A DNA stretch of 64,000 nt from Nitrospirota bacterium. GTDB lineage: Bacteria > Nitrospirota > UBA9217. The translations under genes and the position numbers were made by a program. The stretch covers positions 288,001-352,000 of the forward strand of contig CAVVUN010000012.1 in assembly GCA_963751455.1 (NCBI GenBank). The letters are read 5' to 3'. Of this stretch, positions 58,838 through 63,925 are shown in pieces (position 1 is the stretch's first letter; the number at the start of each line of letters is the position of its first letter). The notes under the pieces are model-generated. The model saw nothing but the letters and a program-made list of their open reading frames with translations. It made no database searches and had not been told where the DNA came from.

Positions 58838-60736
58838 TTATTTGAGTTCTCCCCCGGCGTCACCCGCCGCTTTGAGCGCGGGATTCGAGGTGTACAGGAC
58901 AACCTGGGTCTTGGCGCCTAAAGCCCGGAGGACCTGGCAGGCAGCCTGCTGGCGTACCGGATCAAAACCGGCGAGCGGGTCATCGAGGATGAACGGCAGT
59001 CTCCGTTTTCCCGCCAAGGCTTCGATCAGCCCGGTCCTCAGACAGAAATAAATAACATCCCGCGTGCCGTGGCTCAAGTCTTCGAAATGAACGACGGAGT
59101 CGTCCTTCGCATGAACGACCGGAGATCCTTCATGCCCCGCCTCGACACGAACGTACCTTCCGCCCGTTATCGCCGCCAGGTTTCGCTGCGCGGCAGCCTC
59201 GACAGCTGCGATCAGCGTATCCATCTCTATACCGCCGATGCGGCTCGCGGTGGCGAGCTCGGCCAGAATTCCCGCATGAGCCGCAGCAGGCGGCGCAATA
59301 ACCATGACGTCTTCGGAAAGCTCCGGTCCTGCACCGCGTTCCGGCGCGCCTGTCGCGACGGCCAGTTCCGTTTCCAAACGCTCGATATCCTGCCGGAGGC
59401 TGTAGGCGTCGACTGCATCGTTTGCCAGGGCTGCGGCATTTTTTTCCAGGTCCATTACTTCCTGCTGCATCTGTTCATACCGGGTTTGGAGTTCTTCCCG
59501 GGTGGCATCCCCGAGAATGCGTTCCCTCTGGCCTGTCAGGTCCTCTTGCAGCGATAAGAAATACCGGTAGTTCCCGGCCTTGTCTTCCAGTTCGGACGTC
59601 GTGGAAGACCCGGTTGCCTTCATGCATTCAAGAATGGCTGCTCCACCCTGTTCAAAGCTCTTTTCCGTGCCCGAGAGGTCCGCCTCCAGGATCTTGACCT
59701 CATTGACGATCAGCTTTCGCTGGGCATTTTTCCGCGAGCCGTTATACCACGCGATGGCGATCAGAAACAGGGAAAACAGTATCCCGATCGGAAAATATTC
59801 CGCGGGGATCAAGGTGGGAAGAAACAGTCCGATCGCAAGCGATGCGGCCCCTGCCAGGGCGCCGACGAGAAATAACTTGTCGGACAGGAGTGAGTACACG
59901 GGCATTTCGTCCAGCTGGTTTTGCAGTCCTTCTATCTCCTGGGTCAACTTATCGGTTTCAGCCATTTTCTGGCCCTGGCGCATTTCATGTTCTTTTATAA
60001 GATCGTTCAGGTTTTCGGGAAGCGTCTCGCATCCCTTGAGAGCCGCGAACTGCGACTGGAGGTCTTCCCGCCGCGCCTGTATTTCTTCGAGAGAGTCCAG
60101 CTTCTTTCGCAGTTCCTCGAGCTTCAGTTTGGCGGCATGAGCGCGATAGTCTGCATCGGCCGCTTCCTCCGCCTTCCGGAGCGCTTCCCGACGTTCCGCG
60201 ATCCGGGCCTCGAGTGGTGCGGTTGAGTTTCTTTGCGCCGGCTTCGTCACGACCGGGCGGACGGAAGCAGTAATGGCGCGGTTCACGGACCGCCCGCGCA
60301 ACCCGTTGTAGTGGTCGCGGCGCAGGATAAATAACTTCGTAAACTCCTCTTCGGTAATGCCGGCAGTCAAACTGCCCATGAATTGGATGGTGTTGTCCCA
60401 GTCCTTATACAGGAGACTGAAATCCTTGGTTTCGGGATTGTACTTCGAGAGGTTGACCGCGCATTTCGAGAAGTCCTCGATCACACGGTAATAGGCGCCA
60501 TCGTCGGAGAACGCGACCAGCGCCGCCCGCGAAGCGTCGGGCGTGTATTTCGACAGGAGGCCCGCTGTGACCGCGGGATCGCTGATCGGGAAAAGCAGGC
60601 GGACGATCGTGTCCGCGGACGAAGTCTTTCCCGATTCGTTTCCGGCGGCAATGAAATTGAATCCGCCCTGAAATCTCAGGCGGGAAAGTTCACGGATGCC
60701 GCGCACTCCCTGCATCACAAGCTCCACAAGGAACAT
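58838..60736 (-). CDS. SMC/YhaN-like coiled-coil ABC-type ATPase with internal TM segments
   Basis: GNESGKT Walker A, long coiled coils, LSHGT signature, FILDDP Walker B. Confidence 0.8.
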   Translation of the reverse strand: MFLVELVMQGVRGIRELSRLRFQGGFNFIAAGNESGKTSSADTIVRLLFPISDPAVTAGLLSKYTPDASRAALVAFSDDGAYYRVIEDFSKCAVNLSKYNPETKDFSLLYKDWDNTIQFMGSLTAGITEEEFTKLFILRRDHYNGLRGRSVNRAITASVRPVVTKPAQRNSTAPLEARIAERREALRKAEEAADADYRAHAAKLKLEELRKKLDSLEEIQARREDLQSQFAALKGCETLPENLNDLIKEHEMRQGQKMAETDKLTQEIEGLQNQLDEMPVYSLLSDKLFLVGALAGAASLAIGLFLPTLIPAEYFPIGILFSLFLIAIAWYNGSRKNAQRKLIVNEVKILEADLSGTEKSFEQGGAAILECMKATGSSTTSELEDKAGNYRYFLSLQEDLTGQRERILGDATREELQTRYEQMQQEVMDLEKNAAALANDAVDAYSLRQDIERLETELAVATGAPERGAGPELSEDVMVIAPPAAAHAGILAELATASRIGGIEMDTLIAAVEAAAQRNLAAITGGRYVRVEAGHEGSPVVHAKDDSVVHFEDLSHGTRDVIYFCLRTGLIEALAGKRRLPFILDDPLAGFDPVRQQAACQVLRALGAKTQVVLYTSNPALKAAGDAGGELK

Positions 60737-60868: not shown

Positions 60869-62389
60869 CTAGAGCCGTTCCAGGGCCTTTTTAAGCGCCT
60901 CCGCCTTCTGGAGGGTTTCGAGATACTCGCTCCGGGGGTCGGAATCCGCGACAATGCCGGCGCCGACCTGTATGAAGGCCAGCCCGTCTTTTATTACGAA
61001 CGTCCTTATGATGATGTTCAGGTCCATGTCACCAGCGTTCGAAATATAGCCGATCGAACCCGTATACGGCCCGCGTGCTACCGGCTCCAGTTCGTCGATT
61101 ATCTCCATGCACCTTACTTTCGGCACCCCCGTGATCGTGCCTCCGGGAAAGACTGCGCGCACGACATCGAAAGCATCCATCCCCTTTGCCAGATCGCCCC
61201 GCACGTTCGAGACGATGTGGATGACGTGCGAGTAATCCTCGACCACCATCATTTCATCGACCCGCACCGACCCGTACTCGCACACCTTTCCCAGATCATT
61301 CCGCTCCAGGTCGAGCAGCATTATGTGCTCCGCGCGCTCTTTTTCATTCATCAGAAGCTCGGCCGAAAGTTTGTCTGTCTCGGCCCGGTCCCTGCCCCGG
61401 CGCCGGGTGCCCGCTATCGGCCGGGTATCGACGGCGCCGTTAACGAGTCGGACAAGACGCTCCGGGGAAGAACTGACGAGCTGCAGGTCCCCGAAGTCGA
61501 GGTAAGCGGCAAAAGGGGAAGGATTGATTTCGCGGAGTACGCGGTAAAGCCGCAGAGGGTCGGAATCGTGCAGCTCGACCGAAAGGCGCTGAGACAGGTT
61601 TGCCTGGTAGATGTCGCCGGCCGCGATGTATTCCTTGCAGCGCAAAACCATGGACTCGAACACCCCGCCCGTAATGTTCGGCTCAAGCGAGGCAGCCGCG
61701 CTTTTTCCGGCGGCCGCGGACAGGGGGGTATCTTTTTCCGCGGCTACGGCTGCGCTGATTTCCGCGATCTTTTGCGTTGCCCCGTCATAGAGACGGCCAC
61801 CCTCGGTCTTCTCCATCCTGCGGAAACCCATCTCCTGCTCCCGGGCGCCCGGGTTCACGATCACCCATATTTTTTGCTGGATGTGGTCGAATGCTATGAC
61901 AAAGTCCACAAATACAAAATACGACTCGGGAATATCCAAATCGCGTACGGCATTCCGGGGGATTTGTTCGAACTGGCGGACAAAGTCATAGGAAAAGAAC
62001 CCGAGTGCGCCGCCGGTAAACGGCGGAAGGCCGGGCACGCGCTCTGTTCTATAGTTTGACATCAGCTCACGGAGCTTGACCAGAGGTTTTCGGCGCATCG
62101 AGGCGCGTCTGCCGAACTTTCCCTCGGGCGTGGCCGGCAAATGCAGTTCGACCGTATCTGCGTGAGACCGGAATATGAGATAAGGACCTGCAGTTACATA
62201 GGAATATCTGCCGATTTTGTCGTTCACGCGCGCACTCTCGAGCAGCATGGGATACCCTTGCGTACGGACGGCTTCGAGGGCCATAAACGGCGTCACGCCG
62301 CTCGCTTCCAGCTCAACGGAAACGGGAAGGATCTTGCCGGATTGCAGTGATCGGACAAATTCGTCTTTTAAGGGCCGGACTGTTTTCAT
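60869..62389 (-). CDS. Chorismate-binding enzyme: anthranilate synthase component I or ADC synthase PabB
   Basis: LLESA, YQANLS, SSPERL, RPIAGTRRR, AEHIMLLDLERND, FPGGTITGVPK; trpE versus pabB not resolved. Confidence 0.88.
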   Translation of the reverse strand: MKTVRPLKDEFVRSLQSGKILPVSVELEASGVTPFMALEAVRTQGYPMLLESARVNDKIGRYSYVTAGPYLIFRSHADTVELHLPATPEGKFGRRASMRRKPLVKLRELMSNYRTERVPGLPPFTGGALGFFSYDFVRQFEQIPRNAVRDLDIPESYFVFVDFVIAFDHIQQKIWVIVNPGAREQEMGFRRMEKTEGGRLYDGATQKIAEISAAVAAEKDTPLSAAAGKSAAASLEPNITGGVFESMVLRCKEYIAAGDIYQANLSQRLSVELHDSDPLRLYRVLREINPSPFAAYLDFGDLQLVSSSPERLVRLVNGAVDTRPIAGTRRRGRDRAETDKLSAELLMNEKERAEHIMLLDLERNDLGKVCEYGSVRVDEMMVVEDYSHVIHIVSNVRGDLAKGMDAFDVVRAVFPGGTITGVPKVRCMEIIDELEPVARGPYTGSIGYISNAGDMDLNIIIRTFVIKDGLAFIQVGAGIVADSDPRSEYLETLQKAEALKKALERL

Positions 62390-62538
62390 TATAAAAGATG
62401 TTTGTTGCTCATCGCGGCGAGTCAAGCTTCCAGGTTGACCTGAAATGCGGGCGCGCCGCTTATCAATAAAGACAAAATTTTAAAGGCAATTCCCCGGCAG
62501 GTCAAGATAATTCTCGAAAATTATCAGTGGTGCTTTTA

Positions 62539-62576
62539 TGCTATAATAAATTTATAGATTATTTAGATCTTTGAAA
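62539..62576 (+). promoter_or_regulatory. Extended -10 promoter followed by boxA-like motif
   Basis: TGcTATAAT at 62539-62547; GATCTTTGAAA at 62566-62576. Confidence 0.5.
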
Positions 62577-62588
62577 GATTAATCAGTG

Positions 62589-62882
62589 AGGGCGTTGCCG
62601 AACCAACACCCAATAGGTGAACGTTCTAAACCCGTTTACAAGGGCGATAAGCGCCGACAACCGTTTCCTGCAACCGTGCAGAAAGACCGCAGTTCGGGCC
62701 TTTCTCTCTTTTGCAGGGTTTCGGTAAAACGGAAGTGCCAAAAGCTCGAAGTCCGGGTATGAGGGCAAAAGACGCAAGCTTCACAAGGTCCGCATGGCGG
62801 AGCAGCAGAAGCAGGTCTGATACCCGTTACTCAGCCGGGCTGAACGGAAGTTTAAAGAGATGGTTCGCTGGCAACGCCTTTT
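62589..62882 (+). ncRNA. Candidate structured ncRNA 1 (family unknown)
   Basis: 5' agggcgttgccgaacca pairs with 3' tggttcgctggcaacgcctt; several internal stems; U-run at the end; no credible ORF. Confidence 0.5.
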
Positions 62883-62948
62883 ATAATTACAGAACGTGCT
62901 GCGCAGTTGGAATTAAAAAAACCGGAAAGGGTCGGTCAGAGCACTCGC

Positions 62949-62977
62949 TTGACAACCTTTTTTTGGGGTGCTATATA
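62949..62977 (+). promoter_or_regulatory. sigma70-type promoter upstream of ncRNA candidate 2
   Basis: TTGACA - 17 bp (ending TGc) - TATATA. Confidence 0.55.
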
Positions 62978-62995
62978 AAGACAAAGATCAAAATG

Positions 62996-63302
62996 TTAAT
63001 CCAGCCCTTCGGAGGGTTGGATTAGCGAGGCGTTGCCGGGCCGTATTTTATTATCCGTTGAGAACTTCAAGCGTCGGCTTCTCCTGGTTTTTGATGTGAA
63101 GGCCATGTCGGTCGTGAGACCTTCTGGTTTCATGTTGAGGGCTTCGAAAAGTCCGAAGAGGCTGAAACTCCCTGGCCGGTGAATGATCAATGCAAACATT
63201 CTGCATTGGAATCGCGCAAGCGATTTCTGTGAAGAGTGATCATTGAACTTTCTCTGGTTCAACGATGCTATAAAATACGCGCCTTGGAAACGCCTTTTTT
63301 TT
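62996..63302 (+). ncRNA. Candidate structured ncRNA 2 (family unknown)
   Basis: 5' hairpin 62996-63025; aggcgttgccgggccgtatttta pairs with taaaatacgcgccttggaaacgcct; GNRA hairpins ggtc-GTGA-gacc and aatcgc-GCAA-gcgatt; ends in 8 T. Confidence 0.55.
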
Positions 63303-63352: not shown

Positions 63353-63925
63353 TTAAAAATAATAATGAATCCCCGCCTCAATTGAAACAGTATCTCCGTC
63401 GACATCAGGGTCCAGTGAAAAAGAAAATCCGTTTATTTCTATCTCGTCATACCGAATAAACCGGTAAATGAAACCGAGATTCAACGCCATATTTCTGTTC
63501 AAAAATCGCTCGAGTCCTGCGCCGAAATTCCATCCGCTGCCTTTCAGAGTCGTATCTGCTCCTTCAAAGGGATTATACTCGTCCAAAGAGTAGGACCCCA
63601 GGCCGAACAGAAAGTAGAACTGGTTGGGATCCACAACAGGGGACACAAAAACACGAAGATCGAGGGTGAACCCGTTGAAATCGGCGCTCCCGAATCCGGG
63701 GTCAGTATCCTCGTGATTGGAACCCATAAAGGCGCCTTCAAGCGCGACCTGGCCGAAATCATAACCGAATTTGAATTGAAGCCCTGTTCCTGCGTCGAGA
63801 TAATCGATATCCGAACTGCGGGGATTGTTAAAGACCAGCCCGGCGCCCACATACGGTCCTTCGTCGGCAGATGCAGGACTCAAACAGAGCAGTATGATCA
63901 GTGCTGATAAAGACAGAATCTTCAT
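63353..63925 (-). CDS. Eight-stranded outer-membrane beta-barrel (OmpA/porin-like)
   Basis: Signal peptide, GPYVGAG, amphipathic strands, C-terminal HYYF. Confidence 0.8.
   Translation of the reverse strand: MKILSLSALIILLCLSPASADEGPYVGAGLVFNNPRSSDIDYLDAGTGLQFKFGYDFGQVALEGAFMGSNHEDTDPGFGSADFNGFTLDLRVFVSPVVDPNQFYFLFGLGSYSLDEYNPFEGADTTLKGSGWNFGAGLERFLNRNMALNLGFIYRFIRYDEIEINGFSFSLDPDVDGDTVSIEAGIHYYF

Follow-up and report, generated by a model that had tools for sequence, protein, structure and literature searches.

The window, a 64-kb stretch of DNA from a Nitrospirota genome, contains a gap of 927 bp between a pabB/trpE-like gene and an outer-membrane barrel gene, and two RNA units lie inside this gap. 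The features of the locus are the following (the two subtypes, A and B, are described below).

60869 to 62425, minus strand: divergent pabB/trpE-like gene (Pfam Chorismate_bind and Anth_synt_I_N)
62539 to 62547, plus strand: extended -10 promoter word of unit 1, TGCTATAAT, read from the sequence
62566 to 62576, plus strand: boxA-like antitermination word, GATCTTTGAAA, read from the sequence
62591 to 62878, plus strand: unit 1, type-A Y-shaped ncRNA, 288 nt
62879 to 62882, plus strand: U-run right behind the closing stem of unit 1
62949 to 62977, plus strand: sigma70-type promoter of unit 2, TTGACA (62949), 17 bp, TATATA (62972), with a TG extension
62995 to 63026, plus strand: 14-bp hairpin in the unit-2 leader (-22.1 kcal/mol), noted for this copy with no systematic look at the others
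63029 to 63294, plus strand: unit 2, type-B Y-shaped ncRNA, 266 nt
63295 to 63302, plus strand: U8 run behind unit 2, read from the sequence
63353 to 63925, minus strand: convergent outer-membrane beta-barrel gene (Pfam OMP_b-brl), a neighbour that is not conserved

The pabB/trpE-like gene is followed in the window by a gene (58838-60736, minus strand) for a 632-aa AAA/coiled-coil protein, whose Pfam matches are all below cutoff, and then by genes that we take from their translations to be tmk, holB, PSP1, and metG. The AAA/coiled-coil gene lies between pabB and tmk in class members; in other families, 8 of 40 genomes contain a match to the protein, which is strong only in family f2, and at four loci of other families around this gene we found neither a match to the RNA nor a pabB gene.

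Both units open with the word GGCGTTGCC(G), at 62591 and 63029, and close with its complements, of the form GG(C/A)AACGCC, whose last positions are 62878 and 63294, each with a U-run behind it; exact forward matches of this pair of opening and closing words occur only at these two places in the 64-kb window. The units are ~48% identical to each other. When folding was compared with dinucleotide shuffles, unit 1 had a z-score of -2.8 (1 of 100 shuffles folded as well) and unit 2 a z-score of -7.1 (0 of 200). A first-pass annotation of this DNA had described two tandem, related, structured units with shared closing words, each behind its own promoter-like motif. The coordinates and the shuffle folding bear out the first part of this description, and the motifs are the extended -10 word at 62539 and, before unit 2, TTGACA at 17 bp from TATATA; a promoter consensus scan listed neither promoter. 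At the level of sequence these data confirm the two units as paralogous genes for structured RNAs, and we consider it very probable that they are genuine ncRNA genes. We infer that the RNAs are transcribed and stable. In one run (X1), whose RNA status is a guess (share 0.08), a single 242-nt contig with a depth of 2.3 covered positions 62936-63177, including the unit-2 promoter, and unit 1 was uncovered; for the relative L043 the run gave no useful signal, and we take neither result as evidence for or against expression.

Both units are predicted to adopt one fold, in which a closing stem leads to a three-way junction and two irregular arms. From the ends inward, the elements are P1 and P2, a CAC/GUG side hairpin, an A/U-rich helix, a (C)CGUU/AACG(G) helix, the three-way junction, and two long arms. 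The helices are placed as follows.

Unit 1: P1 62591-62599/62870-62878; P2 62600-62605/62861-62866; P5 62632-62636/62843-62847; side hairpin 62607-62619; two arms
Unit 2: P1 63029-63034/63289-63294; P4 63042-63050/63271-63279; P5 63056-63061/63259-63264; arm-2 tip 63210-63225 with a GCAA loop

We evaluated this fold on an alignment of 32 copies (31 type A and one later classed as type B) using a 68-pair structure that was set by hand. In this alignment, 92.7% of cells were paired, and 33 of the 68 pairs had changes on both sides, compared to 15.4 in shuffles, of which none of 500 reached the observed value. Sliding the partner columns by 1-3 positions brought pairing down to 28-44%, a control that favours the structure because it was picked from the same alignment. 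Among nine short or type-B copies, including unit 2, 83.5% of cells were paired and 10 of 38 pairs were double-changed, a value matched or exceeded in 20 of 500 shuffles. Covariation support is strong in type A and weaker in type B. Unit 1 reached -106.1 kcal/mol in the family fold, with constraints or with none; imposing the family-type pairs on unit 2 carried a penalty of 8 kcal/mol, which leaves the register of its junction less certain, and unit 2 is without the small CAC/GTG side hairpin present in unit 1 and most relatives. Every helix word named in the first-pass annotation was located where that annotation had put it, but its tcagcc/ggctga hairpin (62831/62838) did not hold up: it would enclose a 1-nt loop, and in the family fold this stretch pairs with a junction strand. 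The assignment to the plus strand, in turn, is favoured by the excess of G-U over A-C cells at paired columns (152 vs 55) and by the positions of promoters and terminators.

Across the family, about two thirds of the RNA is paired, and the ends and junction are near-invariant, with the invariance of the terminal helix partly built in by the pattern used to extract units, which demanded it; the arms are variable. Unit lengths range from 229 to 346 nt and spread over all three classes modulo 3, indicating that no reading frame is kept. Variants of 229-250 nt have lost most of arm 1, and such short variants define a minimal core for biochemistry. We recovered no covarying non-nested stem (pseudoknot) in 65 type-A rows; the corresponding type-B analysis (24 rows) was very noisy.

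Searches against Rfam gave no family match: there was none at E up to 10 over 6 kb, only two microRNA chance matches in the 761-nt stretch, and 11 matches at 15 homologue loci, every one far under the gathering score. ARAGORN found nothing in the window. At other positions, the source genome (5.7 Mb; completeness 100%) encodes a canonical 6S RNA, RNase P RNA, a small SRP RNA, tmRNA, and 5S rRNA; RNase P, SRP, and tmRNA are each present in single copy, and there is one Ffh. SRP RNA, RNase P RNA, tmRNA, 5S rRNA, and tRNA were thus rejected as identities, with no model match and canonical genes elsewhere, and readings of the units as an expanded 5S, an SRP-like RNA, or a tRNA-acceptor mimic were dropped as well. 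This agrees with the earlier judgement that the units fit neither tRNA, rRNA, tmRNA, RNase P, 6S, nor SRP and belong to an unknown family. We found no description of this RNA in the titles and abstract openings of the Nitrospirota ncRNA literature, and the main text of two genome-wide ncRNA surveys (PMC11109978, PMC8632094) contains no Nitrospir-, Thermodesulfovibrio, or Leptospirill- names.

The genome family of the window constitutes a whole Nitrospirota class of 64 genomes (probably UBA9217, which has been described as a Nitrospirota class; PMC11033732), and BLAST recovered unit-1 homologues across many of its genera. All genome searches used two sequence-only models, R1 (built from 23 copies) and R2 (built from type B). 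At E 1e-5 or better, R1 matched 63 of 64 genomes in the class and all 32 of those rated high-quality; the single genome without a match is 68% complete. Genomes with the family carry one to five full-length paralogues. In 123 genomes of other Nitrospirota families, R1 gave a single weak partial match (16 bits, E 0.009, in G073) and no convincing copy. With R2, partial matches of 14-17 bits appeared in 17 of 124 such genomes, and the 10 inspected each fell within an open frame and had no closing stem. The one match in 151 genomes of another phylum was unrelated to the RNA family. Because the searches were sequence-only, remote structural homologues may exist beyond the class. A pattern scan of metagenomes yielded at least 119 stretches, and 33 of the first 80 matched the profile at E 0.01 or better. 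No family member was found on viral contigs (two chance matches, with two further scans empty), on plasmids, or in phages, where one 36-bp match fell upstream of the RNA. The RNA family is thus new, uncatalogued, and class-wide.

Phylogenetic analysis of 119 distinct units, drawn from genome and metagenome loci and including some near-duplicates, placed 85 in type A and 34 in type B; a single branch (support 100/97) divides the two. The labels derive from profile scores, which makes this split partly circular, but features outside the RNA still follow it. A boxA word lies 15-50 nt upstream of 68 of 83 type-A copies and of none of 34 type-B copies, and at least four U directly follow the stem in 78 of 83 type-A compared to 7 of 34 type-B copies. 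A separate downstream terminator hairpin shows the reverse pattern (7 of 70 type A, 26 of 31 type B). For promoters, 67 of 83 type-A copies have a TG-TA---T word at a distance of 38-72 nt upstream, and in type B a -10 word lies 6-9 nt upstream in 15 of 34. The conserved arm-1 loop of type A is not retained in type B.

Genomic context also separates the subtypes. The first-pass annotation had suggested collecting homologues beside trpE/pabB; these exist and covary, with pabB upstream of type A in 64 of 66 cases and of type B in only 3 of 30, all three being tandem copies behind a type A. Type A is usually single per genome and syntenic beside pabB, and type B is accessory and scattered; five genomes without a clear type-A copy are also without a close match to the pabB of the window. 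By its sequence, unit 1 is assigned to type A and unit 2 to a divergent type B, with a long branch, atypical composition, and an intermediate layout (a leader of ~45 nt with a hairpin, no boxA, and a U-run behind the unit). Tandem arrays of the form A+A+B or A+B occur in other genomes. Beyond what had been annotated, the two units therefore stand for two subfamilies with different leaders, and the genome holds three more paralogues, all type B (C12:189064-189361, C12:197398-197700, and C15:1188127-1188375), for a total of five copies. This A/B pair is a natural experiment, in which the same fold is combined with a different leader and a different inheritance. All three further paralogues have a terminator hairpin and, 7-8 nt before the RNA, a -10 word, and the two on contig C12 have ~96 bp of upstream sequence in common (87.5%). 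Elsewhere, locus L039 (G002:C67) carries pabB and a type-A RNA twice, the two sets lying ~3 kb from each other on either side of an amino-acid ABC transporter, and a type-B copy at L249 (G047:C179) is convergent to an rtcB gene.

The leader of unit 1 resembles that of rRNA operons. The boxA-like word that had been noted before unit 1 is the same as in the rRNA leaders, and when the whole genome was scanned for promoter words with boxA behind them, three sites emerged: both rRNA leaders and unit 1. In type A, this boxA word precedes the closing helix by ~25 nt. It fits the B. subtilis consensus that was shown to bind NusB (PMC13753749), and the passages on boxA in the same paper describe the element before rRNA operons, suhB, and CRISPR arrays only. 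Unit 1 thus has the sequence hallmark of a boxA-controlled transcript, an rRNA-leader boxA word downstream of a promoter. The parallel with rRNA leader antitermination by boxA and NusB-S10 extends to the word itself; it differs in that boxA here stands before one RNA of 300 nt instead of an rRNA operon or a CRISPR array, and in that type B has none.

The subtypes also appear to differ in inheritance. Type-A sequences largely cluster by genus, and one type-B clade does not. In nine genomes with both subtypes, type-B copies were more alike than type-A copies in 29 of 29 cross-genus pairs (0.79 vs 0.68), pairs that are non-independent and were chosen from the tight type-B clade, but in only 3 of 7 same-genus pairs. 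The shared type-B cassette measures ~480-520 bp, from ~90 bp upstream to just beyond the terminator, and is surrounded by unrelated neighbours. The greater similarity of type B across genera suggests, as the simplest reading of these sequences, that one type-B clade has spread horizontally between genera; alternatively, this clade may be under stronger constraint. We saw no dedicated mobility gene at the type-B cassettes. Locus L231 adjoins an IS110 transposase and L216 an IS605-type ORF (two of the loci scanned). Such flanking genes, together with the apparent spread of a cassette, are what a MITE-like or other mobile repeat whose fold matters as DNA would lead one to expect. This reading is largely refuted and we regard it as exceedingly improbable: the genome has only five divergent copies in 5.7 Mb; type A is syntenic and largely genus-clustered; the inverted repeat is internal to the cassette, between promoter and terminator; and the cassette ends, examined by eye, show no terminal repeat or target duplication. 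In type-B cassettes, an AGTACT palindrome in a conserved block ~95-50 nt upstream of the RNA, before the -35 box (loci L226, L228, L229, L231, L233, L234, L217, and L218), is a possible regulator site.

These results support the conclusion of the first-pass annotation, which read the units as two stable RNAs of an unknown family that share a stem for processing or protein binding; stability is its inferred part. Stand-alone units, changing neighbours, and the absence of a reading frame argue for action in trans, and the tolerance of extra copies and arm-1 deletions, together with near-invariant ends and junction, fits protein titration by a dose-type sponge; RNase P, SRP, and tmRNA, by comparison, are single-copy in this genome. 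We therefore propose, with a probability of roughly one in three, that the Y-shaped RNA titrates a protein in trans as a stable decoy. Each unit would fire from its own sigma70-type promoter, that of unit 1 being followed by the boxA word seen in the sequence. NusB-S10 would load on boxA and shield the untranslated type-A transcript from Rho (genes for Rho and NusB are present in the genome), and the 40-65 nt type-A leader would be trimmed, leaving an RNA that starts at the same G where many type-B genes start directly. Once folded into its predicted closing stem, junction, and two long irregular arms, the RNA would be recognised by a protein at the near-invariant closing stem and junction, with the arms free to undergo large changes (229-346 nt). 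Type A would be expressed constitutively and inherited vertically, and the type-B cassettes, probably acquired by horizontal transfer, would add dose or different regulation. Weighing against a sponge, this genome gave no match to CsrA or Ro60, which known sponges target; identities as a CsrB/RsmZ sponge (no CsrA match, PF02599) or a bacterial Y RNA, a type whose Ro60 gene is usually a neighbour (no Ro60 match; TROVE, PF05731), were accordingly rejected. A retron/DRT ncRNA was also rejected, with no RT domain in the 30 + 54 neighbouring proteins scanned.

RNA polymerase core would be the likeliest single target of such a decoy, and is in itself an unlikely one, its place as lead candidate owing to the precedents of Ms1 and CoRP. 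These are lineage-restricted RNA polymerase-binding RNAs of Actinobacteria (Ms1, 304 nt; PMC4191392) and Corynebacterium (CoRP, 516 nt; PMC11077062). Like them, the family consists of stand-alone, lineage-restricted genes for a long irregular duplex closed by its own ends, and Ms1 is also similar in size (~300 nt). Unlike them, it is Y-shaped with two arms, not a rod with a central bubble, coexists with canonical 6S RNA, has an rRNA-type boxA leader, and is multi-copy with an accessory subtype. Homology to Ms1 or CoRP is unsupported, as judged from the Rfam searches, in which no family of any kind scored above chance. Ms1 requires its bubble for core binding and peaks in stationary phase (PMC4191392). 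In the present family, no large conserved central bubble is predicted, only small loops: single-stranded runs of at least 12 nt were predicted for 30% of type-A copies (n = 40) and 21% of type-B copies (n = 34), compared to 67% of 6S controls (n = 30). Retention of canonical 6S, the lack of 6S profile similarity, and a large bubble predicted only in a minority of copies all speak against polymerase as the target, and by analogy the rRNA-type leader points to expression during growth, unlike the stationary-phase Ms1.

The relation to 6S RNA itself (RF00013) is limited to a closing stem, a stand-alone gene, and short words near the inner closing helix of type B that resemble the Rfam consensus, a likeness noticed post hoc. 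6S is a rod of ~180-200 nt with a large central bubble; the Y-shaped RNAs are 50-170 nt longer (229-346 nt), and most are predicted to have no large bubble. Canonical 6S RNA was present in 26 of 27 class genomes searched, and a profile of 30 Nitrospirota 6S RNAs found nothing among the 119 units (best E 0.81), nor did the reverse search, leaving the derivation from 6S hinted at by the short words unsupported.

Several other functions would account for parts of these data. A structural scaffold of a class-specific ribonucleoprotein, in the manner of OLE, with a dedicated protein on the closing stem and junction and arms that recruit further factors, is possible if doubtful: it would explain why the family is near-universal in one class and not found in others, why ends are invariant and arms variable, and why there is usually one syntenic copy per genome, but no partner gene travels with either subtype, and type-B cassettes appear to move without a protein gene. 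Among large orphan bacterial ncRNAs, OLE, raiA motif RNA/ModT, GOLLD, and ROOL (PMC11706538; PMC12286853) are likewise large, covarying, and non-coding; the present family differs in having no Rfam match, no supported pseudoknot, a range of one Nitrospirota class, and no linked protein gene that we could find. A ribosome- or translation-associated RNA made in step with rRNA, such as an assembly or hibernation factor, would fit the restriction of promoter-plus-boxA sites to the two rRNA leaders and unit 1. We hold it distinctly unlikely, given that type B is without boxA, that 5S rRNA, SRP RNA, and the single Ffh are intact elsewhere, that there is no tRNA-like fold, and that the C2 rRNA operon contains none of three words that would pair with the conserved loop of arm 1.

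That same arm-1 loop of type A could instead belong to an RNA acting independently of protein, as a ribozyme, a ligand binder, or a self-assembling oligomer like GOLLD/ROOL, and at least 80% of type-A rows would allow a loop-junction pairing (GUUG/CAAC). This pairing is without covariation (APC about 0), most of arm 1 can be deleted, and type B does not keep the loop, which makes such an activity quite improbable. Lastly, a regulatory sRNA that base-pairs with mRNAs would be expected to have its own promoter and terminator, as here, and paralogues are common among sRNAs; with about two thirds of the RNA paired and no long conserved single-stranded seed common to both subtypes, we give this reading very little weight.

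New large bacterial RNA classes are rare, and most of those known (6S, Ms1, OLE, raiA) touch core physiology. The present family is near-universal in an uncultured Nitrospirota class, where it occurs alongside the full set of standard housekeeping RNAs, and it bears the boxA signal of rRNA. It is conceivable, but on balance unlikely, that the family is a new RNA class controlling core machinery (RNA polymerase or the ribosome) beside 6S, with an rRNA-antiterminated housekeeping copy and mobile type-B cassettes that retune it.

Two further observations concern other RNAs in these genomes. Rfam 6S matches are missing from all 7 genomes of family f17, and in many genomes of at least one other family (f17 and f9 were noted) the matches are only partial and apical (model positions 59-134), a pattern that probably reflects divergent 6S RNAs or replacements. 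The source genome also has two different tRNA-SeC predictions, at C1:369631-369729 and C13:3947-4041, the second on a 9-kb contig.
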